A DNA stretch of 64,000 nt, taken from positions 10,322-74,321 of the forward strand of contig CAZVPI010000007.1 in NCBI GenBank assembly GCA_964628035.1, in the 5' to 3' direction. Both the position numbers and the translations under genes were made by a program. The stretch's first letter is position 1, and each line of letters begins with the position of its first letter. The notes under the pieces are model-generated. The model was not told where the DNA came from and did no database searches. It saw only the letters and a program-made list of their open reading frames with translations. Source of the DNA: an uncultured Clostridia bacterium (GTDB lineage: Bacteria > Acidobacteriota > Aminicenantia > UBA2199). This document shows positions 1-34,199 of this stretch, in pieces.

Positions 1-660
1 CAATGAGCCGTGGACCTTGTAAAGGCGAATGTGCTTCCTATGCTTGTAGATCGTCTTCAAAAGTCCGCGTTGGGGTACTTGTTCACGTATAAGCAAGGAT
101 TGATTCGCGGCCTCCCAATCAGTTCGCCGTTCTATGCCTCCACAAAATCCGCTTGTATAGTAGATGCCGACGTAATCGCAGGCATGCTCAAACAGCGTGT
201 CATAGTTTGGCGTCAGAACATGAAGGATGCGGTCTCCTTCAGGAAGTGTTTCGACCAGACGCTTGAAGAAGTTTGTTGCGGGCCAAGTTACGTCACCGTT
301 AGCGATTCGTAGGGCATACTCACGATCAAAGGCTGAGACAAACCGCCCGGTGGCTACGGTGATCTTTTGCAGAAGCACAGGATCGGTGACATTATCAAGA
401 GCAGATTCCAAGCTGACGCCTTTCTGAAGTGACTTAAGAACCTTTGCCCATTGCTTCTTTTGGCCAGACGAATGGGAGTCGGCAATAACGCTCTGGGCAA
501 GCTCATCTTTCAAAGATTGCATGCCGAAGTGGGGATCAAGCGCACATGACATTCCCGTTCCAAAAAACACAAACGGTTTATTGCGGAAGAAATCGCGTAT
601 GGTATTGATCGCAACGTCTTCGGTCATTTCTGGACGTGTTGATGATTGGGAGCTACCCAT
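1..660 (-). CDS. SIR2_2-family (Sir2-like NADase-type) domain protein, N-terminal about 220 aa; gene continues beyond window start
   Basis: Minus-strand translation from ATG at 660..658 reads MGSSQSSTRPEMTEDVAINTIRDFFRNKPFVFFGTGMSCALDP...LTPNYDTLFEHA...RLYKVHGS. FFGTGMS matches the Rossmann GAGxS motif, TPNYDTLFEHA matches the SIR2_2 ITTNYDxLLExA motif, and HGS is the C-terminal motif. It is not in the ORF track because it runs off the window edge. The start is 1 nt after the rmuC stop. Confidence 0.6.
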   Translation of the reverse strand, partial: MGSSQSSTRPEMTEDVAINTIRDFFRNKPFVFFGTGMSCALDPHFGMQSLKDELAQSVIADSHSSGQKKQWAKVLKSLQKGVSLESALDNVTDPVLLQKITVATGRFVSAFDREYALRIANGDVTWPATNFFKRLVETLPEGDRILHVLTPNYDTLFEHACDYVGIYYTSGFCGGIERRTDWEAANQSLLIREQVPQRGLLKTIYKHRKHIRLYKVHGSL

Positions 661-661
661 C

Positions 662-2134
662 CTATCCTCCCTCATCCGTTAGTACAGGCACATCTGAGCC
701 AATCTGTTCTGTTCCGAGGGTATCGATTAAATCCGTCGACAGCTCCGGTGCCGACAGCACACGTGGCGTTGTCTCGACAGGTGATAGAGGCGGAATCTCG
801 TTTCCAATCGCGGCCCCCAAGTCCTTGAACCTTCGAGCCGCAGGCAGAATCCTGACTTCCATCGAGCCAACCGCGCTGTTATATGCGGCGTTGGCTTTCT
901 CCAATCCCTTACCGATTTCCCCGATGTGCTCGGCCATGGTCTTCATGCGCTCATAGAGCTGCTTCCCGAGGTCGCTGATGACCTGGGCGTTCTTTGCGAC
1001 CTGTTCCTGACGCCAGCCATAGGCAATAGCACGCAAAAGCGCAATTAGTGTTGTTGGAGTCGATAAAACCACGCGCTTTTCCAACCCGTCTTCGATGAGG
1101 CTGTGGTCGGCATCCAACGCTGCGCCAAAAAATGATTCGCCTGGAATAAACATAATAACAAACTCAGGTGCTTTAGAAAATTGGCTCCAATACGCCTTCG
1201 ACGCAAGGGTATTCATGTGAGTTCGCACCTGAGCCGCATGTCGAGCCATCGCCGTCTTTCGCGTATCTTCCGACTCGGAAGCTATGGCGTCGAGGTACGC
1301 ATCTAGAGATACCTTTGCATCCACGACAATTTCTCTTTCGGAAGGAAGCCGAATGACGAGGTCGGGACGCTGGCGGCCTTCTTCAGTGCTTGCGGTAACC
1401 TGTTCGGTAAAATCACAGTGCTCGGACATCCCCGCCAACTCCACCACACGGCGAAGAGTCATTTCGCCCCACCGGCCTCTTACCTGGGGCTTTCGTAGTG
1501 CCGTAACAAGATTCGCAGTTTCTTTCTGCAGTTGTTGTTGACCCGCGGACAGTATCTTTAGATGCTCTGTAAGCCCCGAATAGGCATCTTGTCTATCCTT
1601 CTCGATTGTGCGTACATGTGCCTCAAATTTACTGATGGACTCTGACAGAGGCTTGACTAAACCTTGAATGGCTTCTTGACGTTTTCCAAGATCCCCCCTG
1701 GCATCCGTCAAAGCATTCTCAAGAGTTACCTTGGCTAATTTCAGGAAAGCCGTTGTGCTGTTGTTTAGAGTATCCCCAGCGAGTGCTTTAAAAGTATCCG
1801 TTAGCTTGCTTTTGGCTTCATTAAGAAAATTTCTTTCTTCTTGGAGATGCTGGACAGTTTCCGTCAATTGAGTTTCTGCTTTTACTCGCGCACTGCTTTC
1901 TTTTGTTAGTTGGTCTCTAATCCTGGACAAATCCTCAAAATTCTTTTGATTCTGTGCACGCAATTCGTTATTGATCCCTTCCAAACTCGAAACCCGTGTT
2001 TCAAAAGCGCTTGCTCTATGCTCCACATCACTAATTTTTTCTGAAAATTTCCTTGATACTCGATTTGATGCGATTACCCAAGTAAGAACTGCCCCAATTA
2101 AAAAACCAATTATTGCATAAAGAATAAAAAGCAT
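662..2134 (-). CDS. rmuC: DNA recombination protein RmuC family (N-terminal TM, coiled coil, C-terminal RmuC nuclease-like domain)
   Basis: 490-aa ORF. N-terminal hydrophobic helix, then a long coiled coil rich in Q/E/K, then the conserved RmuC C-terminal block (...[52 protein letters not shown]...). An AAGGAAGG RBS lies upstream of ATG 2134. Confidence 0.85.
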
Positions 2135-2322
2135 CGTTGCCCTTCCTTACATACTTATAATATGTTCTATAAATACACCAAATAATGAAGCAAAGACCTT
2201 TACAACAAGCGTTTAAGTTATTCATTCATTTATTACCACATTAATGTGATATTCATTTCTCTTCTATTGGTTCTCTTTAACAACTCGCCCCCTTTAAATA
2301 CACTCAATGTGATGGAATCCAC

Positions 2323-3552
2323 TTAATCACCTCGGTGATCACCAGATGGCCCCTTTGTGGCCCTTTCCCTTCCGCCAGACACTTGCTTTGCTCCTATGCG
2401 CTTCTTCATTCTAACAGACTCCGGCGGTTTGAAAGCGATCCCTTTTCGTTTCTGCAGCAGGGCTTGGGTCCGCTCGATCTCGGCAGCCAGTTCCTTTTCA
2501 TCGGGGAGGGCTGTCCGATACTCAGAAGCCATCACTTTATTCGGAAGTCCTTCCAACGCGTAGCGGGCAACGGCCGCGTCTTTCTGGGCGCAAAGAATCA
2601 GCCCCACGGGCGGATTTTCATCCTTACGGACCCAGTGTTCCTGCGCGTAGTTAAGATAAAGATGCATCTGTCCGGCGTCGGCGTAGGTGAATTTGCCGAT
2701 CTTCAAGTCGATAATCACCAGACATCGCAGGCGACGGTGGAAAAAGACCAGGTCCACCCGATACCATTCGTCCCCGATGCGCAGACGTTTCTGCCTGCCG
2801 ATGAAACAGAAGTCGCCGCCTAGCTCCAGGAGAAAAGATTCAAGGTGCCGGATAAGCGCCTCTTCCATGTCGGTTTCGGAGTATTCATCCTTGAGCCCGA
2901 GAAATTCCAGAAAATAAGGGTCCTTGATCTCCTCTTCGGGACGGATCCGATCCTTGACGCCGGCCTTCTCGCCCTTGATCAACATAGCGGCCTTGTTTCG
3001 GGATAGTGCCGTGCGTTCGTAGAACTGGGAATTGATCTGGCGATCGAGTTGCCGCACCGACCAACCGCCGCGCCGGGCTTCGGTTTCATAAAAACGCCTG
3101 GCATTTTCGTTCTTTACCGAAAGCAGCCGGACATATGCCGACCAAGGAAGAGAGAAGCAGGATGCGATGCTGGAAAGGGAAGATTCTGCAGACACTGTCT
3201 GCGGAATTTCAAGGCCATCCGATTCTGCGGATGTCGTCTGCGGAATCTGCCATGCGAGGTAGAACGCCTTTATTTGCCAGATATTGCGAACCGAAAAGCC
3301 CTTGCCGTAACGGGCGGACAAATCACCGGACAATCTTTCGATTAGTTCTTCACCATACCCCGCTCGCTTTTCTCCCCTTTGCTCAGTCTCCACAATTCGT
3401 CTTCCAATCAACCAGTAAGCGGCTGTCATCAGGCAATTTACCGAACGAGCCGCCGATCTCCTGGCCGCATCGATAACAGCGGAGATTTCGCCGAGGACGG
3501 AATCGTAATGTTCATCCAGCCGGGCGTCCGGTTTTATCGGCATTTTTGTCAC
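2323..3552 (-). CDS. YhcG/DUF1016-family PD-(D/E)xK nuclease
   Basis: 409 aa. A strong DUF1016 signature is present: DMEEALIRHLESFLLELGGDFCFIGRQKRLRIGDEWYRVDLVFFHRRLRCLVIIDLKIGKFTYADAGQMHLYLNYA, which contains a D...(I/V)DLK nuclease motif. Confidence 0.8.
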   Translation of the reverse strand: MTKMPIKPDARLDEHYDSVLGEISAVIDAARRSAARSVNCLMTAAYWLIGRRIVETEQRGEKRAGYGEELIERLSGDLSARYGKGFSVRNIWQIKAFYLAWQIPQTTSAESDGLEIPQTVSAESSLSSIASCFSLPWSAYVRLLSVKNENARRFYETEARRGGWSVRQLDRQINSQFYERTALSRNKAAMLIKGEKAGVKDRIRPEEEIKDPYFLEFLGLKDEYSETDMEEALIRHLESFLLELGGDFCFIGRQKRLRIGDEWYRVDLVFFHRRLRCLVIIDLKIGKFTYADAGQMHLYLNYAQEHWVRKDENPPVGLILCAQKDAAVARYALEGLPNKVMASEYRTALPDEKELAAEIERTQALLQKRKGIAFKPPESVRMKKRIGAKQVSGGRERATKGPSGDHRGD

Positions 3553-3607
3553 AGATCCCCCTTCCCGTCGAGCCGTCGTGCGTTCCGTGCTTGTTGTCTG
3601 AAGGTCA

Positions 3608-6600
3608 TCATTTCAATTTGCCTCCGTCAGCCATTCCATCCTCGAGCGACTTGGTCATAACATTGGCATTCAGCCAATAATGTTGGATCTTGACGACTTC
3701 CTGCCATGGGAACCTGGCCGGGTCCTTGATAGGATCAAGTAAGGTCGGCTGTTGCGAGCAATTGGTGACCACATAAAGCCAATAACAGTCACGGCGGTCC
3801 TGGGCTACCCGCCTTTCATTCGGGCTCAACAGGATGGCTCCACTGGATGCGCCGATGCCCTTGACTTCAATGAGCCGCAGTTCGCCGGAATTGATGTCCA
3901 GGCTGGTGATATCGTAGCCCAGGTTCTTTTCGTGAACGTCAAACACCTGGCGGCCCTGAGCTTTTTCATAATCTATCACCACATTCATCGCTTTGATTTC
4001 GGTCTCCTTGTTCTGGCGCAAATTACTAATCTCAGGATTTTCTCGTTCGGGATGCGGCAGGACAAGGATGCTGGCTATTCTTTCCACTCCTTGAAGGGAA
4101 AGCGATTTCTGGCGTTCAAGCTCCTCGCGTCGTCTTTCGCGGCGCGCCATGAGTTCAGCGTGTCGATTTTCCGCTTGCGACAAGCGACCGTCCGCTCCGA
4201 CAACCCCTTCATCTTTCTCTTCATTGGCCCTGCCGATCTCTTCATCGGCCCGTTGCAGCAGCTCGGTGAGGGAGAGATCCACGTGCTTTTCGATGCGCTT
4301 CACCTCGGCCAACCGCTCCTCGCGCACTTCATTCAAAAAAGGCTGGAGCGCATTGGCTTGCAACCAAGAGTCGGACTCGGGTTCATTGGCCATCGCTGGA
4401 ATTTCGCTTGGACGATCAGCAGGAATGAGATCATTGAGCATATTGGGTTCACGCAAGCAGGGTTCGGAATCCTTGGCTATTTCAACGGCGAAAAGCCGTT
4501 CGTGGACGATCTGCCCGAGTCCGTCCACAACGCGGGCGCGATAAAAATCGATGCGGCTGGGAATCGCGTGTTGCAAGGAATAAAAACAAGCCCCTTTCCC
4601 AAATACATCACCGGCCTTTTCGCAAGTAAATCTGCGCAACGCCTCAAAGAAGGGATGCCCGGGGGTGATCCATTCCAGGGTATTCTTTTCCGCAGTTTCA
4701 CGGTCGGTCGAACAGCGCGGGTATTTCGAAGCCAAGGCCGGCAATTTCCAATCCGGCTGGCGGTCGAACCGCTGTAGAACAGTTGGCAGGCGGGCTGGTT
4801 CAAAGGTGTGTGCTAGAGTGTCAATGACCTTCAGCTTCAACGGCACATAAGGGGCAGCCTCGATGATGAAGCGGGAGATGGTCTCGGGCACAACCCTTTT
4901 CTCCTGGGCCTTGGCGCGCCGTTCGAGCAACATGGCCAGGTTCAGCTTCTTGGAAGCCAGGCCCTCCAGTGCATTCTGACAGATGGCGCGAAAATGGCTC
5001 TCATCGACATTTTCAAGCAATTGATCTTCCAGATCGGCATCGCCCAGCTTTCCGGAATAGTAGTCGCGAAGCACCCTTTCGACATGGGTGACCGGGAGAA
5101 TCTCGCCGACGACATTAAAAACCGCATCGTCATCCAGGGCGTTGCGGATCTCCTGGAGCTTTTCCAAGAGACGCTGCAGGACCTTCCCCTCGATCGTGTT
5201 GGTCGCGACGAAGTTAAAGATCAGGCAGTCTTCCGTCTGTCCGTAACGATGGATGCGCCCCATGCGTTGTTCCAGGCGGTTGGGATTCCAGGGGATATCA
5301 TAGTTGAACATGATATGGCAGCATTGCAGGTTGATGCCTTCGCCGGCAGCCTCGGTGGCCACCAGGATCTGGATATCCCCTTGCCAGAATTGTTGCTCCG
5401 TATAGATGCGCGTGCCTGGCTCGTCCCGGGAGCCGGGTTTCATGCCGCCATGGATAAAACCCACCTTGAAGTTCCAGGATCGCAGCTTTTCAACGATGTA
5501 GTCGAGCGTGTCCTTGAATTCAGTGAACAAAAGAAGGCGCTTGTCCGGCTGATCAAAGAAGCCCTCCTGCTTCATCAACGATTTGAGTTTTGCTAATTTT
5601 GCCTCGGTATCAGAGATCTCGATATCTTTGGCCTTTTGCGCAAATTGGCGGAGTTCGGCGATCTCTTCGCGAACTTGCTCGGCATTGCCGGAGAGGGTAA
5701 TGGCTTCGAGAATCTGCTCAAGCCGTTCACGGTCATCCTCTTCCATCTCTTCGAGCTCTTCCGGATCAGGGAGGTCAGCCGGGGCTATGCGGATTAACTC
5801 CTGGGCTCGTTTCAGCCCATCCTCTAAGCGCCGAGCCCGGTTCTCCAGGCTATGCCGCATGGCGTACATACTGGATGCCAACCGGCGCTGATACAGGGCC
5901 ATCAAGAAACCGACCGCGCGAGCGCGCGGATCATCGCCTTGGGCGGCCGCCTTGGCACTCTGCCGCTTGACCATGCGCGTGATTTCGCAATAAAGTTCAC
6001 ATTCGGCGCCATCGATTTGAAAATCGACGGTTTGGGGGATACGCTTTTTGAAGATCTTTTCCGCCGCCCACGTACCATCCGCTTGCTGTTCGGGGAAATA
6101 GACCATGGCCTCCTTGGTACGGCGTAGATAAAACGGCGCACGCTTGCGTTCCATGGCTTCGTGGATGGAACGAACATCGGCATAGGCATCGGGATCCAAT
6201 AACTGCAGAAAACGGGTGAAATTCTCCGGATCGCCCTTATGGGGCGTCGCGGTCATGAGCAGCAAATGGTCCGTCGTATCGCGGAGCAACTCCCCGAGAG
6301 CGTAGCGAGCGGTTTTGCGCGCCGGCGGGGTCCAGGACATGTGGTGCGCCTCATCGATAACGATCAGGTCCCAATGAACCTGCTTCAATCCCGGCAAGAT
6401 GTCGGTACGCTTGGCCAGATCGAGCGAAGTAATAATTTTTTTCTGCTCCAGCCACTGGTTGACCCCGTATTGATCGCGGATTTCACTGCCTTTAATGACC
6501 ATGAACTTTTCAGCGAATTTTTCTTTCAACTCCCGCTGCCATTGGAAGGCGAGGTTGGCCGGGCATACGACCAATATTCGTTCGGCCAATCCCCGGAGTT

Positions 6601-7051
6601 GGAGTTCGCGAATCAGCAGACCGGCCATGATGGTCTTTCCCGCTCCAGCATCATCGGCAAGCAGAAAGCGAACTTGGGGAAGCTTGAGAAGATAATCGTA
6701 AACCGCTTCCAGTTGGTGCGGGAGCGGATCCACCCGGGAGATCGAAAGCCCGAAATAGGGATCGAATTCCCAGGCAATGCCAAGCGAATAGGCCTGCAAG
6801 CCCAAGCGAAGCAGTTCTCCATCGCCATCATAGGTGAAACCTGTACTCTGGACAGCAAGAGTTTGTAGATCTTTTTCTGAAAGCGTGACCTTGCGAAATT
6901 TTTCCGAGTTTATTCCTACAAGCCCCAAGGTCATCCCGCCGGAGGGATCGGCCTGAACCGTCTCCACACGCATGGGCTCATTGAAGAGAGAACCTGAAAT
7001 GACACATCCAACTCGAATTGAATCGTGTGACTTACTCATCACTGTCACCAT
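3608..7051 (-). CDS. SNF2-family helicase (DExx box, HELICc) with C-terminal DUF3883-like PD-(D/E)xK nuclease domain
   Basis: 1147 aa. Walker A LLADDAGAGKTIMAG and DExH box LIVIDEAHH are present. A helicase C-terminal block (...QRMGRIHRYGQ) follows. The C-terminal about 120 aa read ...DVHEKNLGYDITSLDINSGELRLIEVKGIGASSGAILLSPNERRVAQDRRDCYWLYVVTNC, which contains D...ExK. The start overlaps the upstream DUF2075 gene by 1 nt. Confidence 0.8.
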   Translation of the reverse strand: MVTVMSKSHDSIRVGCVISGSLFNEPMRVETVQADPSGGMTLGLVGINSEKFRKVTLSEKDLQTLAVQSTGFTYDGDGELLRLGLQAYSLGIAWEFDPYFGLSISRVDPLPHQLEAVYDYLLKLPQVRFLLADDAGAGKTIMAGLLIRELQLRGLAERILVVCPANLAFQWQRELKEKFAEKFMVIKGSEIRDQYGVNQWLEQKKIITSLDLAKRTDILPGLKQVHWDLIVIDEAHHMSWTPPARKTARYALGELLRDTTDHLLLMTATPHKGDPENFTRFLQLLDPDAYADVRSIHEAMERKRAPFYLRRTKEAMVYFPEQQADGTWAAEKIFKKRIPQTVDFQIDGAECELYCEITRMVKRQSAKAAAQGDDPRARAVGFLMALYQRRLASSMYAMRHSLENRARRLEDGLKRAQELIRIAPADLPDPEELEEMEEDDRERLEQILEAITLSGNAEQVREEIAELRQFAQKAKDIEISDTEAKLAKLKSLMKQEGFFDQPDKRLLLFTEFKDTLDYIVEKLRSWNFKVGFIHGGMKPGSRDEPGTRIYTEQQFWQGDIQILVATEAAGEGINLQCCHIMFNYDIPWNPNRLEQRMGRIHRYGQTEDCLIFNFVATNTIEGKVLQRLLEKLQEIRNALDDDAVFNVVGEILPVTHVERVLRDYYSGKLGDADLEDQLLENVDESHFRAICQNALEGLASKKLNLAMLLERRAKAQEKRVVPETISRFIIEAAPYVPLKLKVIDTLAHTFEPARLPTVLQRFDRQPDWKLPALASKYPRCSTDRETAEKNTLEWITPGHPFFEALRRFTCEKAGDVFGKGACFYSLQHAIPSRIDFYRARVVDGLGQIVHERLFAVEIAKDSEPCLREPNMLNDLIPADRPSEIPAMANEPESDSWLQANALQPFLNEVREERLAEVKRIEKHVDLSLTELLQRADEEIGRANEEKDEGVVGADGRLSQAENRHAELMARRERRREELERQKSLSLQGVERIASILVLPHPERENPEISNLRQNKETEIKAMNVVIDYEKAQGRQVFDVHEKNLGYDITSLDINSGELRLIEVKGIGASSGAILLSPNERRVAQDRRDCYWLYVVTNCSQQPTLLDPIKDPARFPWQEVVKIQHYWLNANVMTKSLEDGMADGGKLK

Positions 7052-8913
7052 TACTCCATCCTACTCTTGAAAAATCGTTCGGTTTCCTTGTCTTGGAAAT
7101 AAACATAGCACCCTTTCAGGCCACGTGAAAGCAGAACTCGGTACGTATTTTTTACTAAACTTAGGAAATTGTCCTTGCTCTTTTTCACTACTGGGTCGGC
7201 GGAGCAGGCCTTGTCGCCGATCCATTTTTGGGCATCGAAAGAATAGCAGAGGTCCTTGCCAAAGATTATCCCGACGTAGTCGAACTCGAAGCCCTGGGCC
7301 GTGTAGATGCAGCCGACCTGATCTATGCCCCCGGGATCATTGGCCCAAAGAGTGGCTTTGGGAATACCCTTAGCAAGGCGGGTAGCCTCCGGCTTGGCAT
7401 TCCAGGGGCGATGAAAGTCATCGATCTTCACGTCGTCGACCAGGGTCCCATCGGGACGGGCATCGGACCAGGACCAGCAAAAACCGGCGGCCAAGCGGGC
7501 GCTGAAGCCCTCTACCGCCTTGGCCCGGATCGCCTTATCCAGTTCTTCAGGCGACGGTAATATCCTGAAATCGAACTCCTCCTCCCTGGTGTTCCAAAGC
7601 ACGTTGGCCGTGCGGTGGATCCCTAGAGTATTTTCTATCCAGGCGACGAAACCCTGTGAGCCGGCGCAGCGAAACTGGATGTCGAGAGTGAACTCTTCGA
7701 TATTGGTCATGAGCGCGTTCCCGGCCTTGACGATGTAGTCGGTCGACCCTATCTCACCGGGTCGCACAACTTGGTCGTTATCAATGAAGAAGACGCAGAC
7801 CCGCGCCGCTTTTAAAAGCTCCTCCACCTGGGGTTTGTTCGATTTCTTCTGGAAGCGTGTATTACTAGTTTCGCGGATGCGGTGCGACTCGTCGCAGATT
7901 AGAACATCGACCTCGTCGGGCTGGGCGCCGGCATAACTGTTGAAATACTTGAATTGAACACTGCCTCGCCTGCCGATTACATTGCGCAGAGTCTCGGTAA
8001 AGGCCCGAGATCCGGTGGCGTAATGGGCGTTGAATCCCTTGCGGAGCAATTCAGCCATCAGATTGATGGCAATCACCGACTTTCCTGTGCCCGGGCCACC
8101 CCGGACAATAATCACATATTTTTGCCGCATGTGAAAACCGCGGTCCACGATGCCCAGGATCTTGTCGAATACGACACGCTGCTCGTCGAGAAGAATATAC
8201 TCAGCCTTGCCCTCGATCACACCGGCCACATGGTCCATCAGTTTTTTGCTGGGGCGGTACTTGCTCTCCTCGACCCGGCGCAAGACTTCCATCCCATTCC
8301 CTTTCTTGAGGCGCCGATCCAGGTATGCGCAGATGGAGTCGAAATCGTCTGCAGTAAAGACGGGAGAAGATGCGATAAGAGAGTCAAACTTTGACGCGAA
8401 AAGGACATCCTTTGGTTCCGGCGCATAGTTATGCAGATAAGCGCAGGAATGCAGGTCAACTGGATTGTCGTCAGCATAAAAAGCCGTGTGCGTATCCTTA
8501 AGATATTGTTTGTAATAATCAACCTGGGCCGAAGGATGCAGCACATCTGTGTATCCTCCGGCAAGGATAGTGGACAGTTCGTTGTCGCCAATGGCTTCCC
8601 GGCATTTCCCCCACTGCTTGAGTTCAACGATGACCGCATTGTCCATATCGTCTTCATTCCTGCCGCAGACCATACAATCCAGCCTTTTCGAGCTCAAGGG
8701 AAGTTGGTATTCAAGCAGAATGCCATGATCGACCAATCCCGCGTGTTGGATAACGTCCTTCATCCTTATGAGCGAGTTGTTCCAGGAGCGGATCTCGGCC
8801 TCAGACGGGTTGTATCGGAAATGCTCGAAAAAGGAGCGCCGCAATTTTTCCGAGATCTGGTTGCGAACCGTGTCCTCGATGAAATTCTTAGAATTCCCGG
8901 CGTAAAGCCTCAT
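7051..8913 (-). CDS. DUF2075-family (Schlafen-like) P-loop ATPase/helicase with N-terminal PD-(D/E)xK-like nuclease domain
   Basis: 620 aa. The N-terminal region has D...ELK (RLDCMVCG...NAVIVELKQW). Walker A is IIVRGGPGTGKSVIAINL and Walker B/DExH is VLICDESHRI. The C-terminal DUF2075 region (FVAWIENTL..., CIYTAQGFEFDYVGIIFG) follows. It overlaps the MazG-like gene by 4 nt and the SNF2 gene by 1 nt. Confidence 0.8.
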   Translation of the reverse strand: MRLYAGNSKNFIEDTVRNQISEKLRRSFFEHFRYNPSEAEIRSWNNSLIRMKDVIQHAGLVDHGILLEYQLPLSSKRLDCMVCGRNEDDMDNAVIVELKQWGKCREAIGDNELSTILAGGYTDVLHPSAQVDYYKQYLKDTHTAFYADDNPVDLHSCAYLHNYAPEPKDVLFASKFDSLIASSPVFTADDFDSICAYLDRRLKKGNGMEVLRRVEESKYRPSKKLMDHVAGVIEGKAEYILLDEQRVVFDKILGIVDRGFHMRQKYVIIVRGGPGTGKSVIAINLMAELLRKGFNAHYATGSRAFTETLRNVIGRRGSVQFKYFNSYAGAQPDEVDVLICDESHRIRETSNTRFQKKSNKPQVEELLKAARVCVFFIDNDQVVRPGEIGSTDYIVKAGNALMTNIEEFTLDIQFRCAGSQGFVAWIENTLGIHRTANVLWNTREEEFDFRILPSPEELDKAIRAKAVEGFSARLAAGFCWSWSDARPDGTLVDDVKIDDFHRPWNAKPEATRLAKGIPKATLWANDPGGIDQVGCIYTAQGFEFDYVGIIFGKDLCYSFDAQKWIGDKACSADPVVKKSKDNFLSLVKNTYRVLLSRGLKGCYVYFQDKETERFFKSRME

Positions 8914-9278
8914 TTGAATTCAGTATATTTCTTGGCCGAACCCTTAGCCTTATCGACAGGGTATCGGACTTCATTATGACCGATTTTTTTCCGAATCGCC
9001 TTCTCGATATCTATCTTGGCCTCATGAGCAAAAAGCATGGAAAAGATTAGGATATCGGCAATTTCAGAGGCAAGCCTCTCCCTTTTCTCCTTTGTGATCT
9101 TCCTAGATTCCTGAGGGGTCTTCCAGAGGAAATGTTCCAAGAGCTCTCCTGCCTCTATTGAAATCGCTTCCGCCAGATTCTTCGGATCATGAAACTGCGC
9201 CCAATCACGACGGTCACGAAAAACCAGGATCGTCTCCATTAAATCCCCAGGCATCTTCATTTCATGCCCCCCATCCAT
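8910..9278 (-). CDS. MazG-like all-alpha NTP pyrophosphohydrolase (start may be the internal METILVF at about 9239)
   Basis: The EAGELLEHFLWK and ASEIADILIFSMLFA motifs (E-x-x-E...E-x-x-D metal-binding helices) are typical of MazG/YpjD-like NTP-PPases. The protein is 110-122 aa. It is the first gene of a three-gene overlapping operon. Confidence 0.7.
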   Translation of the reverse strand: MDGGHEMKMPGDLMETILVFRDRRDWAQFHDPKNLAEAISIEAGELLEHFLWKTPQESRKITKEKRERLASEIADILIFSMLFAHEAKIDIEKAIRKKIGHNEVRYPVDKAKGSAKKYTEFK

Positions 9279-9320
9279 CTATTTGAAATCCACTGTTTCA
9301 GGCTAGCTAATTTTAAAAAA

Positions 9321-9349
9321 CGCAGCATTCAATGTCAACCCCAATATTT
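9321..9349 (-). promoter_or_regulatory. sigma70-like promoter TTGACA-N17-TAAAAT upstream of the MazG/DUF2075/SNF2 operon
   Basis: The minus-strand sequence reads TTGACAttgaatgctgcgtttttTAAAAT, with the -35 at 9349..9344 and the -10 at 9326..9321. It sits about 40 nt upstream of the MazG-like start in an AT-rich intergenic region. Confidence 0.35.
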
Positions 9350-9566
9350 TCCTTTTTTTGCCCTGATATAGCCAAGTTCAGATATTTGAATGAGAGAAAA
9401 TAGGGAAAAATGTGATCCCTTCGAAATACGAAGCCAGAGGTTCGACGTCCAAGGGAATTGGGGTCAGGTCTTGAAATGACAGATCCTTCATCGTCCCTAT
9501 TCATGTTTCCGCAGGGCCAAGCTGATGCTCGAATAATGCATCCCCAGATAATCGCCGATTTCACGC

Positions 9567-9860
9567 ATGGTCTATCCTGCCCTCAACATAGGCCCGGTAA
9601 AGAAACATGAGGGGCGGGTCTTGAACACGTTCATCCATACCATCGCCCACCAGATCGGCGTCGGCATGCTGAAGCTCCTGGGAACGGTTTTCGCCTCCAC
9701 CCGCTTCCCGGCCGACCTGGCCGATCCCCTCGGCTACCTGGCCGTGCTGACCCTGTTCGCCGTGCTGCTGACCCTGGCCAAGAAGATCGCCTGGATCGTG
9801 CTGGCCGTGGGCTGGGGATTCATCGTCATCAGGCTGTTGATGATCATCTTCAAGATCTAG
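9567..9860 (+). CDS. small membrane protein, two TM helices (true start possibly MLKLLG at about 9669)
   Basis: The ORF track shows a 97-aa ORF. The C-terminal two-thirds are hydrophobic (LGYLAVLTLFAVLLTLA, IAWIVLAVGWGFIVIRLLMIIF). It lies at the low-GC/high-GC junction and I do not recognise the family. Confidence 0.35.
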   Translation: MVYPALNIGPVKKHEGRVLNTFIHTIAHQIGVGMLKLLGTVFASTRFPADLADPLGYLAVLTLFAVLLTLAKKIAWIVLAVGWGFIVIRLLMIIFKI

Positions 9861-9861
9861 A

Positions 9862-10011
9862 GACGTTAGACATTAGCCGTTAGACGGTAGACGAGAGAAC
9901 GAGCACGAGACATTAGACGTTAGACGTCAGCAAGAGAAAGCAAGTGAAAAAGGAGGGGAGTCGCTCTACTTAATGCGTTTCCTTGTCACTCGTCACTCTT
10001 CACTTGTCACC
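9862..10011. repeat. modular intergenic repeat: TAGACGT-type tandem units, a GAAAGCAAGTGAAAAAGGAGG box, then a GTCACTC-type array
   Basis: agacgttagacattagccgttagacggtagacgag...gacattagacgttagacgtcagc is followed by cttgtcactcgtcactcttcacttgtcacc. The same modules recur in at least 18 other intergenic regions. Confidence 0.7.
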
Positions 10012-10023
10012 AAAGTTCGCCTG

Positions 10024-10506
10024 TTAAATGAACAACGTGAACTTGGACTCCGAGGCGTCGGCGATGAACGAGGCGACGCCGCCGATCGCGACGCCGTCGA
10101 TCAGGTCCTCCTTCTTGATCTCCATGACGTTCATGCTCATCTCGCAGGCGGTGAGCTTGACGCCGAGGTCCTGCGCCTGCTTGAGCAGCTGGGGCAGGCT
10201 GGTGACGTTGTGGGCCTTCATCATCTTCTTGAACATCCAGCGGCCCAGGCCGCCGAAGTTGAACTGGGAGGGGCCCAGGCGGTCGATGCCGCCGCGGTTC
10301 AGCAACCCCAGCATGCGGCCCATCAGCCCCTTGCCGGTCAGGTTGCCCTTCTGGATGGCCTTCAGCCCCCAGAAGGTGAAGAACATGGAGACCTGCATGT
10401 CGAAGGCGGCGGCGCCGGTGGCGATGATGAAGGCGCCCATCACCTTGTCCATGTCGCCGCTCATGACCACCAGGCTCGCTTTCTCAGGCGTTTGCGCGTC
10501 GCTCAT
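10024..10506 (-). CDS. dsrE: DsrE/DsrF-like sulfur-relay family protein
   Basis: 160 aa, reading MSDAQTPEKASLVVMSGDMDKVMGAFIIATGAAA...TACEMSMNVMEI. This is a DsrE-fold protein with a conserved Cys, and it is the last gene of the tusA-hdr operon. Confidence 0.7.
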   Translation of the reverse strand: MSDAQTPEKASLVVMSGDMDKVMGAFIIATGAAAFDMQVSMFFTFWGLKAIQKGNLTGKGLMGRMLGLLNRGGIDRLGPSQFNFGGLGRWMFKKMMKAHNVTSLPQLLKQAQDLGVKLTACEMSMNVMEIKKEDLIDGVAIGGVASFIADASESKFTLFI

Positions 10507-10533
10507 TGATCTCCTCCTCGGGATTCGTTTCGG

Positions 10534-11622
10534 CTATTTCAGGCCGGCAAAAAACAGGGCCGCCGGCCGGTAGACGACGTGGGCGAACTTGCTGAAGGGG
10601 AAGGTGACCAGCAGGTCGAAGACGAAGACGATGTGCACGGCCACGGTCACGTAGGCCGCCGGCAGCAGGCCCAGGAAGCGGAAGCCGACGATGGCGAAGC
10701 CGCTGAGCACCGAGAGCGCCAGCAGCAGCAGGAAGGCCCAGTCGCTGGGGTGGGAGTACTTGCCCACCGCCGTCTTCCCCGTCAAACGCAGGGCAAGGTA
10801 GTACCCCAGCCCCAGCGCGCAGGCGGCGCCGGAGACGGATCCGATTGCCAGCGATACCCAGCGCGGCCAGGGCAGCCAGCCGAAGTCGACGGCGCCGATG
10901 ATGATCGTGGCCAGCAGCATGCCCATGAAGCCCCAGGAGACCCCCATGTGCGCCAGGCGCCGCAGGCGGTCGTCGGCGCACTCGCCGAAGCGGTCCTGCA
11001 GCACCGACTCCTTGAGCGTCTGGAACGCCGAGTGGCCGGCCTTTTCCGCCCGCAGCGCGGCGAGGACATTCGGCGTGCCGCTCAGGTTGCGGGCCAGGAT
11101 CCACACCTGGATGGCGGCGACCCCGGCGATGAAGGCGACCAGGACGATCCCCGCCCAATGGACGGGCCCCAGGGGGATGAAGGACTGGAAGTCGAAGCGC
11201 TCCATGTCGGGATGCGGCTGCCGCGCCAGCAGCACCAGGGCCAGGGCGACGGCGCTCAGCGCCAGCCAGGTGACCAGCGATCCCAGTGAGGAATACACGG
11301 CGTCGGCGGCGCGGCCGAGCGCGTAGCGCCGGGTGGCGAAGCGGCGTAGGGCCATCATCAGCGAGGCGGGCTCGGCCTGGCGCGGGCAGGTCTCGCTGCA
11401 CTCGCCGCAGTAATAGCACAGCCAGGGCTCGGGCGCGGAGAGCAGGCGCCTTTCCAGGCCGAGCAACGCGTAGCGGATCATGCGCCGCGGGAAGGATGCG
11501 GCCTCCTGCGAGAGCGGGCAGATGGCCGAACAGGTGCCGCAGCTGTAGCAGGCCTCGAGGTCGAAGGCGCCGAGCTTCTTGATCTCGGCCAGGACCCGGG
11601 GATTGACCTTTTCCATGCTCAT
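10534..11622 (-). CDS. QmoC/HdrE-like membrane subunit: N-terminal HdrC-like 2x[4Fe-4S] ferredoxin fused to a multi-TM cytochrome b-like domain
   Basis: Start MSMEKVNP at about 11622 forms an ATGA overlap with the upstream gene stop. Two CxxCxxCxxxCP motifs are present (CYSCGTCSAICP, CYYCGECSETCP). About 6 TM helices follow, with conserved His residues (HSAF, HMGVSWGF, HIVFVFD, FAHVVY) as in HdrE/DsrM/QmoC. Confidence 0.7.
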   Translation of the reverse strand: MSMEKVNPRVLAEIKKLGAFDLEACYSCGTCSAICPLSQEAASFPRRMIRYALLGLERRLLSAPEPWLCYYCGECSETCPRQAEPASLMMALRRFATRRYALGRAADAVYSSLGSLVTWLALSAVALALVLLARQPHPDMERFDFQSFIPLGPVHWAGIVLVAFIAGVAAIQVWILARNLSGTPNVLAALRAEKAGHSAFQTLKESVLQDRFGECADDRLRRLAHMGVSWGFMGMLLATIIIGAVDFGWLPWPRWVSLAIGSVSGAACALGLGYYLALRLTGKTAVGKYSHPSDWAFLLLLALSVLSGFAIVGFRFLGLLPAAYVTVAVHIVFVFDLLVTFPFSKFAHVVYRPAALFFAGLK

Positions 11623-11897
11623 TTCTCCCCGGCCAGCGAGTAGCGGTGGAAGCCCTCGCCGTCGGCCTTCTCCGAGGCCCTGACCCGGCCGTAGCGCACG
11701 AAGCCCATCACCCACCAGGTGACCTGGGGCTCGGGGGCGCCCAGCTCGCGCGCCAGCTCGGGCAGGGTCAACGGCCCGCGGGCCGCCAGCAGCTTCAGGA
11801 CCCGGCCGCGGACGGCGAATTCCTGGCGGGCGGTCTCGCGCCCGCGCCCGAGAATGGCGACGCTCTCGGGAAAGCGCTCGCGGCTGCTGTCATTCAT
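11619..11897 (-). CDS. small winged-helix-like protein (putative regulator), conserved hypothetical
   Basis: 92 aa. The central segment VLKLLAARGPLTLPELARELGAPEPQVTWWVMGFVRYGRV looks like a helix-turn-helix. It overlaps both the hdrA end and the qmoC-like start. Confidence 0.4.
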   Translation of the reverse strand: MNDSSRERFPESVAILGRGRETARQEFAVRGRVLKLLAARGPLTLPELARELGAPEPQVTWWVMGFVRYGRVRASEKADGEGFHRYSLAGEK

Positions 11898-13662
11898 TCT
11901 CGGCCTCCCGGGCCAGCACGTCGATCATGGCCTCGATTTGTTCGTCGCTGTAGCCCTTCATCTGGGTGGCGTCGAGCGGGCAGGGGGGCAGGCAGGCGCC
12001 GCAGCCCTTGCACAGGGCCTCGACCACCTGGGCCACCTCCTTGTCCCCATAGGCGGCCTTCTCGATGGCGCCGTAGGGGCAGGCGGGCTGGCACTTGCCG
12101 CACCAGGTGCATGCATCGGCGCGGACATAGGCCACGAAAGGCTGCAGGTCGACATAGCCCTTGATCAGCAGCGCCGCGGCCTTGGCCACCGCCGCCAGCG
12201 AGGAGACGACGCTCTCGCCGGCGTTCTTCGGACCCTGGCAGGCGCCGGCGATATAGACGCCGTCGATGACCGTCTCCACCGGCCGCAGCTTGGGGTGGAT
12301 CTCGTTGTAGAAGCGGTCGGCGCCCAGCGGCAGCTTCAGCACCTTCGTCAGCCCGTCGTTGTCCCGCGCCGTCATGCCGGTGACCAGCACCACCAGGTCG
12401 GCCGCCAGCGCCACTTCCTCGCCGCCGGTGAGCAGGTCCTGGACGACCACGCGCAGGGAATCGCCGTCGCGCTCGACGCGCGGCGGCCGCTCCTCGTGGA
12501 AGCGCAGGAAGACCGAGCCCGACTTGCCCGCCTCCTCGTAGATCGTCTCGAACTTGCCGTAGGTGCGCATGTCGCGGTAGAGGTGGTAGCTGCGCACGCC
12601 GGGGAATTTCCTGGAGGCCAGCAGCGCCAGGTGGCAGGCGGCGCTGCAGCAATAGCGCGAGCACCAGCGGTTGAGGTCTTCGCCCTCGCCGTTCTGGCGG
12701 CTGCCGACGCAGTAGATGAAGGCGACCGAGCGGACTTCCCGGCCCTCGTGGAACAGCCGGCCGTCCCCCTCTTGCAGGAGTTTCTCGAACTGCGAGAGGG
12801 TGACCACCCCGGGCTGCCCGAAGGCGTACTCGCCCGGCTTGGGCCCGTACTCGGCGAAGCCGGTGGCCACCAGGATGGCGCCGACCCGGATGCGCACCGT
12901 TTCCTCCGCCGCGCCCCCTCGCCGGGAGCCTTCAGGGCCGGCGGGCCGGATGCGGATCGCCAGGTCAAACTCGCCGATATGGCCGTTTTTTCCCGCCAGT
13001 TCGGCGTTGCGGAACAGGGTGATGCCCGGCCGCTTGCGAACCTCCTCCAGCAGGGAGGCGACCAGCTCGGAGCCGACCTTGCCGGCCGGGAACATCTCGC
13101 CCAGCGCCGCGACCTGGCCTCCGGCGCGCGCCTCACGCTCAACGACGAAGACCTCAACGCCCAGGTCGGCCAGCTCGACGGCGGCGCGCAGGCCGGCGAT
13201 GCCGGCGCCCACGACCAGCACCCGCTTCACCGAGGTGACGCGGATCGGTTTCAGGGCCTCCTGGCGCAGGGCCTTCTCGACGCCGGCGCCCACCAGGTTG
13301 GCCGCCTTGCAGGTGGCGCCCGGGTGGTCGTCGGAATGGGCCCAGGAGCACTGCTCGCGGATGTTGACCTGCACGTACTGGAACGGGTTGAGCCCGGCGC
13401 GTGCCGACAGGTTGCGGAAAGTGGTCAGGTGCAGCTTGGGCGAGCAGGAGGCGACCACCAGGCCGTCAAGCCCCTGCTCCTGGATGTCCTTCATCATCTC
13501 GTTCTGCGAGGCGTCGGAGCAGGTGAACATCGAGGTCCTGGCCACGGTGACGCCGTATTGCTCCTCGATGCGCCTGCGCACCTCCTCGACGTCGATGTGG
13601 TCGGAGATGTTGCCGCCGCAATGGCAGATGTAGACGCCGATCCTCCTCTTCTTCTCTTCCAT
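11890..13662 (-). CDS. hdrA: heterodisulfide reductase subunit A (HdrA) flavoprotein
   Basis: True start MEEKKRRIGVYICHCGGNISD is at about 13662; the track ORF carries a spurious N-terminal extension. The HdrA N-terminal 4-Cys motif is present (IGVYICHCG...VVASCSPKLH...NIREQCSWAH). The FAD fold shows VLVVGAGIAGLRAA, and C-terminal ferredoxin motifs are CTWCGKCQPACP and CKGCGACLPPCP. Confidence 0.85.
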   Translation of the reverse strand: MEEKKRRIGVYICHCGGNISDHIDVEEVRRRIEEQYGVTVARTSMFTCSDASQNEMMKDIQEQGLDGLVVASCSPKLHLTTFRNLSARAGLNPFQYVQVNIREQCSWAHSDDHPGATCKAANLVGAGVEKALRQEALKPIRVTSVKRVLVVGAGIAGLRAAVELADLGVEVFVVEREARAGGQVAALGEMFPAGKVGSELVASLLEEVRKRPGITLFRNAELAGKNGHIGEFDLAIRIRPAGPEGSRRGGAAEETVRIRVGAILVATGFAEYGPKPGEYAFGQPGVVTLSQFEKLLQEGDGRLFHEGREVRSVAFIYCVGSRQNGEGEDLNRWCSRYCCSAACHLALLASRKFPGVRSYHLYRDMRTYGKFETIYEEAGKSGSVFLRFHEERPPRVERDGDSLRVVVQDLLTGGEEVALAADLVVLVTGMTARDNDGLTKVLKLPLGADRFYNEIHPKLRPVETVIDGVYIAGACQGPKNAGESVVSSLAAVAKAAALLIKGYVDLQPFVAYVRADACTWCGKCQPACPYGAIEKAAYGDKEVAQVVEALCKGCGACLPPCPLDATQMKGYSDEQIEAMIDVLAREAENE

Positions 13663-16782: not shown

Positions 16783-17113
16783 GGAACGTCTTCTCCATGG
16801 TTTGGATCAGGCCCGCCAGCCGCGGGTCGGCGATGCGGTAGTGGACGTGGTTGCCCTGGCGCCGCGCCAGCACCAGCCCCTCGCGGCGCATGCGCGTCAG
16901 ATGCTGCGAGATGAGCGGCTGCGAGGCGTCGCACGCGGCGCGCAGGTCGCTGACGGTCGCTTCGCCCTTGGCCAGCCGGCAGAGCAGGAAAAGACGCTGC
17001 GGATGGGCTAGGCTCTTGAGCAGCGCCGCCACCCGGGCGCAGCGCTTCTTGGAGGCGGCAAGGTCGGACATCTGGGTCGCAGGGGGCGGTGAGGGCGCCC
17101 AGCCCCGCATCAT
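16775..17113 (-). CDS. ArsR/SmtB-family transcriptional regulator (start possibly MSDLA at about 17071)
   Basis: The HTH reads LKSLAHPQRLFLLCRLAKGEATVSDLRAACDASQPLISQHLTRMRREGLV. It overlaps tusA by 4 nt and mvhD by 8 nt. Confidence 0.75.
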   Translation of the reverse strand: MMRGWAPSPPPATQMSDLAASKKRCARVAALLKSLAHPQRLFLLCRLAKGEATVSDLRAACDASQPLISQHLTRMRREGLVLARRQGNHVHYRIADPRLAGLIQTMEKTFHE

Positions 17114-17370
17114 TTCGTCTTCTTGACGAAGAGACGCCAGAAGCCGGCGTCCTCGACCACTCCCAGGAAATCATACCGCATCTTGCCCGCCCACATGGGG
17201 ATGTCGTTGTTGGTCCCCTCGTCGGACGAAAGAACTTCCATCACGGCGCCGACCGGGACGGAGGTGACCGCCTTCTTGGCTTCGAGCAGCGGCCCCGGGC
17301 AGGCCATGCCGCGGGCGTCGACCACCCTGTCGGCCTTGAGTCGCTTCAGTTCTTCCTGAGTCATGGGCAT
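17110..17370 (-). CDS. tusA: TusA-like sulfurtransferase
   Basis: 86 aa. The conserved CPxP motif is present (DARGMACPGPLLEAKK). An AAGGAG RBS lies 7 nt upstream of the ATG. Confidence 0.8.
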   Translation of the reverse strand: MPMTQEELKRLKADRVVDARGMACPGPLLEAKKAVTSVPVGAVMEVLSSDEGTNNDIPMWAGKMRYDFLGVVEDAGFWRLFVKKTK

Positions 17371-17393
17371 ACTCCTTGATCAAGGATTCGCGA

Positions 17394-17434
17394 GAATATT
17401 AGAATATTAAAATATTCTTATATTCACTGTCAAG
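17394..17434 (-). promoter_or_regulatory. AT-rich 15-2-15 inverted repeat (GAATATTAGAATATT-AA-AATATTCTTATATTC) overlapping a sigma70-like promoter upstream of tusA
   Basis: The arms match 14/15 when reverse-complemented. On the minus strand, TTGACA (17434..17429) is followed by an 18-nt spacer and TAATAT (17410..17405). This sits about 25-65 nt upstream of the tusA ATG and is a candidate operator for the operon-encoded ArsR-family regulator. Confidence 0.4.
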
Positions 17435-17738
17435 AGGCGAACGAAATTTCCGGGATGACACTGGCGCCCTTGGTTCGATCAGCTTCTGGCCAGCACAAAC
17501 ACCAACCTGCCCAAAATTCCTTTGCAGGAAACCTAATGAAACGGGCAGGACGAAAGCACCCATTTCCAAGCACCAAATCCACCTGGCGGGGACGATGCCC
17601 CCTGGCGGGGGCGATGGGACCCAAACCAGGGCCCTCGAAAGGAAAAGGCAAAAGTGAGGCGAACAGGCAATTTATTTTGGACGGCGCTGGTTTCTTGCTC
17701 GCACTAACACTAACGCTGCGAAATGGGTTTCCTTATCG

Positions 17739-18332: not shown

Positions 18333-18605
18333 AGCTCCTTGGGGATCGAGCCCATATTATAATACAAATGCGCAAGATCGCCAAATGGAAATGGATGATC
18401 ACGTGTTAGCGTTGGTGTTAGCAGGAAATTCAACGAACAAGAGGGGATAGTGACGATGGCAGCAGCGGCATCGATAAGGGCGTATGGCTTTTGCCGTACG
18501 CCGTACGCCCTCTGTCGAACGCCAATCTCCATGAAGTTCCCTTGCAACCCGGTTCGACACCCCCTCGTCGAATATGATACAGTATACAAGGAAAACGACC
18601 ATCCC

Positions 18606-19538: not shown

Positions 19539-19550
19539 CAAAGGAGACCC

Positions 19551-20180: not shown

Positions 20181-20181
20181 C

Positions 20182-20583: not shown

Positions 20584-20621
20584 CCGATACCCTTGACCAG
20601 GCGGCGGTAAGGGGATCGGCA

Positions 20622-20723: not shown

Positions 20724-20801
20724 CGTTCTGGGAAGCCCCTTTTTGACACCCTCGCTTTTGGATGCTATTATTACGTGGGGATTCCCGTTGTTGATCCAAC
20801 C

Positions 20802-34177: not shown

Positions 34178-34199
34178 GTTCCCTCCTCATCTCAATGCC

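Follow-up and report, generated by a model that had tools for sequence, protein, structure and literature searches.

A probable anti-phage defence island with nested cargo on an Hma backbone in Candidatus Aminicenantes

We analysed a 64,000-nucleotide stretch of DNA (hereafter the window) from an uncultured bacterium (NCBI GenBank assembly GCA_964628035.1, contig CAZVPI010000007.1, positions 10,322 to 74,321) and conclude that its positions 1 to ~9600 very probably form the dsrE2-proximal half of a ~19-kb, laterally acquired anti-phage defence island of Candidatus Aminicenantes. The backbone of this island is, to judge from the homology of its proteins, the published Hma, or type-1 BREX-related, system, and other defence genes are nested between its three genes. 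A preliminary description made from the sequence alone had taken positions 1-9560 for a horizontally acquired phage-defence island of low guanine-plus-cytosine (GC) content, a proposal with which base composition, PADLOC matches and related genomes agree. The island is otherwise an ordinary one of a published kind, and novelty, if any, is confined to a pair of genes encoding a MazG-like pyrophosphohydrolase and a DUF2075 protein.

Extent of the island and its Hma backbone

We extended the window through six contigs that encode the exact RmuC protein of the island, which derive from independent JGI and Logan assemblies and are 99.9-100% identical. The contigs L001-L006, L167, L186 and L187, from at least six independent samples, share at least 99.9% identity with the window and span both junctions. 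Contig L001 has the same dsrE2/QmoC flank as the window and runs on beyond its left edge, where it encodes the rest of the SIR2 protein, a HerA/DUF87 protein, a DUF1156 methyltransferase, an AbiJ_NTD4/Abi_C protein and a DUF499 ATPase. Low GC (42-57%) persists across these out-of-window genes, ~9.3 kb beyond the left edge, and the far GC step lies at ~13100-13300 of L167, ~350-500 bp past hmaC, where GC rises from 30-40% to 55-70%. By these identical contigs the island totals ~19 kb, twice what the preliminary description had assigned to it (9.6 kb), and window 1-~9600 is its dsrE2-proximal half. Read leftward, the genes encode the MazG-like protein, the Nhi-like/DUF2075 protein and HmaA, then YhcG, RmuC and SIR2 up to the window edge and HerA beyond it, then HmaB, the AbiJ_NTD4/Abi_C protein and HmaC; all are co-oriented in one array and, to go by this arrangement, may be co-transcribed. 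The window edge thus cuts two systems in half, and neither SIR2-HerA nor Hma can be called from the window alone. The far side was reached in a 48-kb contig and in a 140.5-kb contig (ENA ERZ926433, k127_162929), the latter via the exact HicB protein. Beyond hmaC the flank returns to host-like GC and encodes a T2SSE ATPase, small open reading frames (ORFs), HicB, a PAS/GAF kinase with a response regulator, an amidase, HtrA and DapF. A 77-codon ORF of 29-36% GC after hmaC (L167 12846-13079) is without a Pfam match and is not DUF3780.

The same contigs bear on the idea that the low-GC segment was joined to a high-GC genome as a chimera of assembly or binning. Such an artefact would account for the sharp compositional contrast and for the several contigs that end near the junction, but it is extremely unlikely: the near junction is spanned by L001 and the far one by L167, L186 and L187, the spanning contigs were assembled independently (JGI, ENA and Logan) from different samples and agree at 99.9-100% identity, and the exact DUF2075 protein is present in 41 blocks of the sequence collection.

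The three backbone genes are:

3608..7051, minus strand: HmaA, a Swi2/Snf2 helicase with a C-terminal NOV_C (DUF3883) PD-(D/E)xK nuclease, the predicted Hma effector (Pfam and PADLOC)
L001 14393-17374, outside the window: HmaB, a predicted DUF1156 N6-adenine methyltransferase (PADLOC HmaB, 2.1e-112; Pfam DUF1156)
L001 18330-21095, outside the window: HmaC, a predicted DUF499 AAA+ ATPase (PADLOC HmaC, 7e-90; Pfam DUF499)

The Hma system is reportedly also to be credited to Payne et al. in 2021. The island HmaA carries the Pfam domains SNF2-rel_dom, Helicase_C and NOV_C and matches the PADLOC HmaA model over residues 53-1096 (8.8e-176), with a score far above that of the DrmD model. Motif I (GAGKT at 136) and motif VI (GRIHR at 598) of the helicase are present, as are the predicted nuclease residues D1047/D1052, E1062-V-K1064 and E1079 (= K+15), which match those mutated in the Halomonas HmaA (D1084/E1104/K1106/E1121; PMC11232893). 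In that work HmaA protected against T4 and the NOV_C nickase was needed (Liu et al. 2024, PMC11232893). A 2026 survey (PMC12839542) renamed hma loci DUF499-centred BREX-related systems; its type 1 is this trio, and the type 1 helicase carries a fused, active restriction-endonuclease-like nuclease domain. As an alternative assignment of the helicase we considered DISARM DrmD or BREX BrxHII and dropped it: the protein scores 358 bits against an NCBIfam DrmD equivalog cut-off of 610, and the locus encodes no DrmA, DrmB or DrmC.

To place the island among other Hma loci, we surveyed the inter-gene slots of 80 metagenome loci from one HmaC scan, with HmaC 73-92% identical to that of the island and the island's own contig not among them. 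The order hmaA, slot, hmaB, slot, hmaC was held in these loci, and gaps above 500 bp separated hmaA from hmaB in 29/30 and hmaB from hmaC in 44/63. The hmaA-hmaB slot of the island, at 5.9 kb with four cargo genes, is the largest among the 31 measured. Its cargo recurs elsewhere in the survey: RmuC in 8 loci, YhcG in 3 (L094, L128 and L150), SIR2-HerA in 2 (L133 and, as a distant pair, L107) and AbiJ in 3, there in the hmaB-hmaC slot. In the Aminicenantes-related loci L168 and L170 the cargo is different and consists of Qat-like genes, an AAA_21 and DUF4276 pair, Fic and AbiJ. In L168 (276-9986), from the Aminicenantes metagenome-assembled genome (MAG) GCA_022013915.1, genes for a KAP NTPase, QatB, a QueC-like protein and an ASCH protein lie upstream of an HmaB-DUF559 fusion, and the AAA_21/AAA_15 and DUF4276 pair occupies the hmaB-hmaC slot. 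In the island each of the two Hma slots is occupied by independent defence genes, in keeping with the published hma loci, 66.5% of which have defence genes inside hmaABC and which were called a "defence gene insertion hotspot" (PMC11232893).

These surveys also speak to the way the six genes in the window belong together. All six are minus-strand genes with the Pfam domains first ascribed to them, and 5/6 of their proteins match PADLOC defence models. Treating them as one island was right in so far as they belong to a defence island; they do not make a unit, being pieces of at least five systems, two of which (SIR2-HerA and Hma) are completed outside the window. A single new multi-component system, in which nuclease, helicase, NADase and NTPase work only as a whole, might be read from six co-oriented, tightly spaced genes with three overlapping or nearly abutting junctions and one good promoter-like site, upstream of the MazG-like gene. 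We regard it as very unlikely, since the MazG-DUF2075 pair occurs alone on plasmids and in L171, L183 and L185, the cargo of Hma is of quite another make-up in L168, L170 and the 80 metagenome loci, SIR2-HerA, YhcG and RmuC each occupy a slot singly elsewhere, and two systems depend on genes beyond the six.

Base composition and related genomes

The GC content of window 1-9560 is 51.6%, against 65.7% for 9561-64000, a contrast of ~14 points. The preliminary description had recognised this contrast by eye, but the range of 45-52% that it gave was too low and too narrow, as 500-nt sliding windows within the island stretch run from 36% to 58%. GC at third codon positions is 47-65% in the six island genes, 97% in dsrE2 and 94% in the neighbouring QmoC-like gene. 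Tetranucleotide profiles deviate as strongly: 4-kb windows starting at 1, 2001, 4001 and 6001 correlate with window 12001-64000 at only 0.36-0.66, compared with at least 0.936 for each window from 10001 onward. At the near edge, 100-nt bins from 9301-9400 have 34%, 47%, 52%, 58% (9601-9700), 69%, 50% and 47% GC, and GC settles at a host-like ~60-65% from 10001 on. The abrupt transition that had been placed at ~9560-9600 therefore holds only for the first host-like bin, 9601; the near edge is a transition zone with no single abrupt GC step, and sequence kept in relatives starts only at the dsrE2 stop codon, 10024. Milder GC dips (54-62%) occur elsewhere in the window at 17000-18750, 34000-36000 and 44000-48000; the genes at 17-18.4 kb are kept in relatives at an identity of just 40-67%.

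The flank assigns the host to Candidatus Aminicenantes, with best relatives 86-87% identical. The near boundary is anchored by the first conserved host gene:

10024..10506, minus strand: dsrE2-like gene, outside the island (Pfam DrsE_2, 2.1e-48)

This gene is syntenic in 7/7 Aminicenantes relatives at 78-92% identity (L007, L008, L009, L011, L012, L027 and L033). In all seven, synteny with the window runs from 10027 to ~17400-20800 and ends at dsrE2; none has island genes within 10 kb of dsrE2, and GC there stays high. Five of the seven share a common conserved gene set past dsrE2. A simple insertion between two conserved flanks was considered and dropped, as the relatives' dsrE2-downstream genes are found nowhere on the far side. 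Because no neighbours of dsrE2 in the relatives reappear beyond the island, we place the island at a synteny breakpoint beside dsrE2. HmaC homologues with 73-92% identity are found in many metagenome contigs, and those at 77-81% belong to Lentisphaerota, Desulfobacca, Desulforudis and other Deltaproteobacteria MAGs; this distribution across phyla fits recent lateral spread. We conclude that the island was acquired laterally.

A further relative, L171 (1-6448), has the same far-flank genes (T2SSE at 89%, HicAB at 94%) and no Hma. It carries a MazG-DUF2075 pair (79/83% identity) in a different context and in reversed orientation, adjoining a Y1_Tnp transposase-like gene and Ssp-like genes (DUF4007 and a cysteine desulfurase). 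With this gene content the neighbourhood looks like a variable defence hotspot.

The same comparisons leave little room for the view that these are housekeeping genes of recombination and repair (RmuC, helicases, a house-cleaning MazG) whose low GC arose by chance. Housekeeping relatives exist for Escherichia coli RmuC, DCTPP1-type enzymes and SNF2/RapA-type ATPases, and the NCBIfam matches include RmuC and RapA. However, the equivalog scores fall far under their cut-offs (RmuC 185/810, RapA 182/576, DrmD 358/610 bits), the genes are absent at the locus in seven relatives and foreign in codon composition, and they give strong PADLOC defence matches and are embedded in an Hma operon. A housekeeping role is accordingly highly unlikely, in line with the original statement that none of the six is a housekeeping gene.

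Cargo of the Hma slots

The window contains the following cargo of the hmaA-hmaB slot, along with one intergenic feature:

2323..3552, minus strand: YhcG/DUF1016, a predicted PD-(D/E)xK nuclease of type PDC-S02 (Pfam DUF1016_N, 2.7e-42; YhcG_C, 7.4e-58)
2135..2322, no strand assigned: AT-rich spacer, 188 bp long, which separates yhcG from rmuC and has the lowest GC in the window (36-40% GC in 500-nt windows over 1751-2500)
662..2134, minus strand: RmuC-family predicted PD-(D/E)xK nuclease, hydrophobic at its N-terminus (a putative anchor) and with a coiled-coil stretch (Pfam RmuC, 2.4e-105)
1..660, minus strand: SIR2-family protein, the putative NADase-type effector of SIR2-HerA, N-terminal 220 of 372 codons (Pfam SIR2_2)

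The spacer is a likely internal promoter region. YhcG gives a full-length match to the PADLOC PDC-S02 model (3.8e-137). The best PADLOC model of RmuC is RTasRmuC, the DRT-associated RmuC (3e-62), and its 185 bits against the NCBIfam RmuC equivalog cut-off of 810 show that it is not the housekeeping orthologue; its hydrophobic N-terminus points to a membrane location. Membrane-anchored RmuC nucleases are known from Shield, whose ShdA has been reported only in Pseudomonas, with ShdA homologues embedded in DISARM-like operons (Macdonald et al. 2023, PMC10270631). The Shield model is absent among the PADLOC matches of the island RmuC, and the gene has no ShdB-E partners beside it, the downstream genes being SIR2 and HerA. 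We regard the island RmuC as similar to ShdA in its domain features and presumably in the way it works, but do not file it as Shield. In other Hma loci, RmuC in the hmaA-hmaB slot is followed by an OLD-family nuclease (AAA_15 and TOPRIM; L121 4001-5974, L139 4636-6609, L134 2240-4213) or an AAA_13 ATPase (L105 4620-6923, L111 4145-6436, L161 3862-5403). Given this pattern, ATPase effectors of various kinds may commonly have RmuC as their upstream partner.

The SIR2-HerA pair is known to act by abortive infection through the depletion of NAD, and its anti-phage activity reportedly goes back to Gao et al. in 2020 and Shen et al. in 2023. The ribosome-binding site GGAGGA accompanies the SIR2 start codon (ATG), which lies 1 nt past the rmuC stop. 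The PADLOC SIR2 model PDLC04086 matches the part in the window at 7.7e-71 and the full 372-aa protein of L001 at 1.1e-141. There, after a 2-nt gap, follows HerA (DUF87; 579 aa; PADLOC PDLC04105, 1.8e-227). The cargo of the hmaB-hmaC slot, outside the window in L001, is the AbiJ_NTD4/Abi_C protein.

A MazG-like and DUF2075 gene pair

Upstream of hmaA lie two genes and a candidate promoter:

7051..8913, minus strand: Nhi-like protein, with a predicted N-terminal PD-(D/E)xK-type nuclease domain (residues ~38-160) and a DUF2075/Schlafen-group-3 superfamily 1 (SF1) helicase-ATPase (Pfam SLFN-g3_helicase, DUF2075)
8910..9278, minus strand: MazG-like all-alpha nucleoside triphosphate (NTP) pyrophosphohydrolase of the DCTPP1/RS21-C6 type, first gene of the putative operon (Pfam MazG-like, 2.2e-18)
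9310..9338, minus strand: candidate sigma-70-like promoter, TTGACA-17-TAAAAT, 32 nt upstream of the MazG start codon

The MazG-like and DUF2075 genes overlap by ATGA, and the DUF2075 stop and the hmaA start by TAATG; these overlaps, like the 1-nt gap between rmuC and the SIR2 gene, are consistent with translational coupling. The promoter candidate, with 11/12 consensus positions the best in 1-10100, is a lead only, as promoter and terminator scans gave site totals no higher than in shuffled sequence. The best PDB sequence matches of the MazG-like protein are the DCTPP1/RS21-C6 structures 6sqw and 2a3q (E 8.5e-19), and its metal-binding motifs ExxE (42-48) and ExxD (72-75) are intact; it matches no PADLOC 2.0.0 model. 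The DUF2075 protein gives weaker PADLOC matches to PDC-S41, AbiO and Nhi, the last two (AbiO 2.9e-14, Nhi 3.7e-13) limited to ~155 residues (~236-390). Its C-terminal part has an SF1 helicase fold, nearest to SLFN11, RecD2, Dda and Upf1. Homologues with as little as 27% identity all keep E68, D79 and E97-x-K99 of its N-terminal domain, and an AlphaFold2 model of the protein (predicted local distance difference test 76.6) orders this domain as alpha-beta-beta-beta-alpha-beta. An N-terminal nuclease with a DUF2075 SF1 helicase is the plan of Nhi (Bari et al. 2022) and Nhi-like (Millman et al. 2022) proteins.

The pair is found well beyond this island. Apart from L171, it occurs without Hma modules in L183 (74% identity) and, with a DUF2075 variant fused to peptidase S24, stands alone among iron-transport genes in L185. 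It is carried on plasmids of Priestia, Halomonas, Nocardiopsis, many strains of the B. cereus group and the archaeon Halalkalicoccus, and appears on a few phage records, including that of Microcystis phage Mwe-JY31. The pair is thus a recurrent cassette in distant lineages of bacteria and archaea and in a few phages. A literature search returned no paper that links MazG with DUF2075 or an Nhi-like protein, and none that describes the pair as a system. A large subfamily of ~800-aa Nhi-like DUF2075 proteins is fused to Peptidase_S24 of the LexA/CI type (L185 6001-8403, P0163, P0171, P0216 and many others), a fusion which suggests a link between their activation and DNA damage or RecA; the fused gene of L185 still has a MazG-like gene ahead of it.

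Altering the deoxynucleoside triphosphate (dNTP) pool is a defence strategy with precedent in dCTP deaminase and dGTPase. We tentatively propose, as a possibility with rather less than even odds, that the MazG-like and Nhi-like DUF2075 proteins form an unnamed two-gene anti-phage module acting via the cytosine nucleotide pool, with a range that would take in Aminicenantes, Bacillota, Actinomycetota, Gammaproteobacteria, Halobacteria and some phages. In such a cassette the pyrophosphatase would destroy dCTP or a 5-modified dCTP, for example hydroxymethyl-dCTP, and phage DNA would then go unmade or be made unmodified. Unmodified phage DNA would be exposed to the partner nuclease-helicase and, in the island, to the abutting HmaA. 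The pair is the sole lead with discovery value here and, if the proposal is true, it would tie dNTP-pool sanitation to a nuclease-helicase effector.

The junctions and the origin of the island

Between the MazG-like gene and dsrE2 lie the following features:

9279..10023, no strand assigned: junction zone between island and conserved flank, holding repeats, a helix-turn-helix (HTH)-like ORF, a 97-codon ORF and GTTAGAC heptamers
9602..9625, minus strand: near-side copy of an imperfect direct repeat of 24 nt, TTCAAGACC[C/T]G[C/A]CCCTCATGTTTC, at the GC step, a candidate att-like site or recombination scar
9456..9477, minus strand: 22-nt repeat copy, ATTTCAAGACCTGACCCCAATT, with an exact 22-nt match at L167 15286-15307 and a 17-nt match at L167 13045-13061
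9496..9567, minus strand: putative 23-codon HTH-like ORF remnant (MREIGDYLGMHYSSISLALRKHE, from translation), between two repeat copies

The partner copy of the 24-nt repeat, L167 13108-13131, sits ~18.9 kb away at the far GC step; it is 22/24 identical and oriented alike. The search for att-like repeats that the preliminary description had suggested therefore does yield a repeat at both GC steps, but an imperfect one with extra core copies nearby. The 15-nt core has one exact copy in the 64-kb window and one copy with two mismatches (9611-9625), against a chance expectation, at up to two mismatches, of 0.11. No copies of the motif were found in other loci or in the viral collection, so that it occurs in this genome only. 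At the far boundary the core also forms an inverted pair, a possible hairpin (L167 13047-13061 and 13108-13122).

The junction zone and its 97-codon ORF have no matches in the relatives save three stretches of 37-47 nt (83-86%, window ~9850-10025), which map elsewhere in the relatives' loci (L008, L010 and L027). The 97-codon ORF (9567-9860, plus strand; host-like GC of 58-69%), called as a gene by JGI, has a hydrophobic C-terminal half, no Pfam match and no homologue in the seven relatives; a 24-nt repeat copy falls within its 5' end. Between it and the dsrE2 stop stand 4-5 copies of GTTAGAC-type heptamers in 76 nt (9861-9936), which are not conserved in relatives. Contigs L002-L006 and L180-L182 begin 250-570 bp upstream of the MazG-like gene, and such breaks of many independent assemblies within the junction zone hint at strain heterogeneity or a boundary repeat. 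Rfam gave no family on window 1-12000.

The 23-codon ORF had been taken for the tail of a transposase or of an integrase-associated HTH protein. The ORF itself exists and may have such an origin, but its matches to HTH_CodY, MarR_2 and HTH_Crp_2 are sub-threshold (E ~0.005-0.007), no integrase accompanies it, and it has neither a homologue in six-frame translations of loci outside this genome nor a match to the Y1_Tnp gene of L171. Read through two in-frame stops, it continues to ...ICHFKT and a stop, ending in the repeat motif, which suggests a decayed gene, a suggestion backed only by those HTH matches.

These features raise the question of whether the island is what remains of a larger integrative element, be it a prophage, an integrative and conjugative element or a satellite, with a decayed recombination module and with the 24-nt repeats as old attL and attR. 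The imperfect repeat at both GC steps with the decayed HTH-like ORF between its copies, the Y1_Tnp gene beside MazG-DUF2075 in L171, the many assemblies that break at the junction and the few phage records with the MazG-DUF2075 pair would all fit, as would the phage integrase found near 19% of hma loci (Liu et al., PMC11232893). Yet neither the 19 kb nor the 13 kb beyond contain an integrase, excisionase, replication, conjugation or virion gene, there is no transfer RNA (tRNA) gene, neither the viral collection nor any other locus contains the repeat, and the HTH-like ORF is without a significant family match. We consider such an origin possible but doubtful, perhaps one chance in a few.

Several of our results weigh against the interpretation given above, both of the island as an insertion and of its parts. 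The relatives' genes after dsrE2 were not found on the far flank, in the 64-kb window or in L187, and no far-flank gene corresponds to the relatives' dsrE2 neighbours, so that conservation is confined to the dsrE2 flank. Gene calls on L001, L167 and L187 show neither an integrase nor a transposase, tRNA or phage structural gene within the 19 kb or beside it. The two copies of the 24-nt repeat differ, and its 15-22-nt core occurs three further times near the island ends; with these extra copies the repeat may be a local element instead of an att site. For the two-gene module, no adjacent MazG lies beside the DUF2075 homologues of L184, a close one, or of several Streptomyces and Hymenobacter strains and Methanosphaera. 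The N-terminal nuclease fold of the DUF2075 protein is predicted from motif conservation and the predicted order of secondary-structure elements; that domain has no Pfam match, and fold searches with the protein placed no nuclease among the top matches, where the helicase core dominates. Finally, the organism is uncultured, and the function of every module is assigned by homology.

Proposed mode of action

From their families, the modules of the defence island may act in several layers. HmaB would mark self DNA by N6-adenine methylation, HmaC, as an ORC/Cdc6-like STAND ATPase, would sense foreign DNA or assemble on it, and HmaA would translocate and nick unmodified DNA. RmuC and YhcG would cut or degrade DNA, and the Nhi-like protein would attack phage replication intermediates. 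Once activated, SIR2-HerA would deplete NAD+ in abortive infection, and the AbiJ/Abi_C protein would likewise abort infection. The DCTPP1-type MazG-like protein would hydrolyse dCTP or a 5-modified dCTP, and such hydrolysis could either starve phage replication or keep phages from building modified, nuclease-resistant DNA.

Comparison with known systems

Each module resembles a described system and differs from it in setting. The island YhcG has the PD-(D/E)xK YhcG_C domain of PDC-S02, itself a single-gene defence candidate defined by genomic association. The island RmuC, like the DISARM-associated ShdA homologues, combines a putatively anchored RmuC domain with a place in a defence island inside an SNF2-methylase operon. 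Unlike Shield, it is followed by SIR2-HerA in the island and by OLD-family or AAA_13 ATPases in sister loci. As in SIR2-HerA systems, the island SIR2_2 protein is followed at once by a DUF87/HerA ATPase, both with very strong PADLOC matches, but here the pair stands directly behind RmuC (1-nt gap) inside an Hma operon, with 220 SIR2 codons in the window.

The DUF2075 protein has the same predicted domain plan as Nhi and Nhi-like proteins, with conserved ATPase and putative nuclease motifs, and differs in its weak PADLOC similarity to Nhi and in being paired with an upstream MazG-like gene. The MazG-like protein resembles DCTPP1 in its sequence match and motifs and differs in that its gene adjoins a putative nuclease-helicase gene; its substrate is only predicted.

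With published Hma loci the island shares three proteins of the same kinds (the HmaC-type DUF499 ATPase being without HEPN), their gene order and the conserved helicase and nuclease residues, as well as the insertion of defence genes between hmaA, hmaB and hmaC. It differs in cargo, which is YhcG, RmuC, SIR2-HerA and AbiJ here and Septu, PARIS, Ppl and GmrSD-like genes in Halomonas, in the MazG/Nhi-like pair that abuts hmaA upstream, and in its host phylum, the uncultured Aminicenantes. The island is thus a fully resolved example of nested defence, an Hma scaffold with four or five other modules in a phylum without cultured members, and the hma insertion hotspot is thereby widened from Halomonas to Aminicenantes and many metagenomic lineages.

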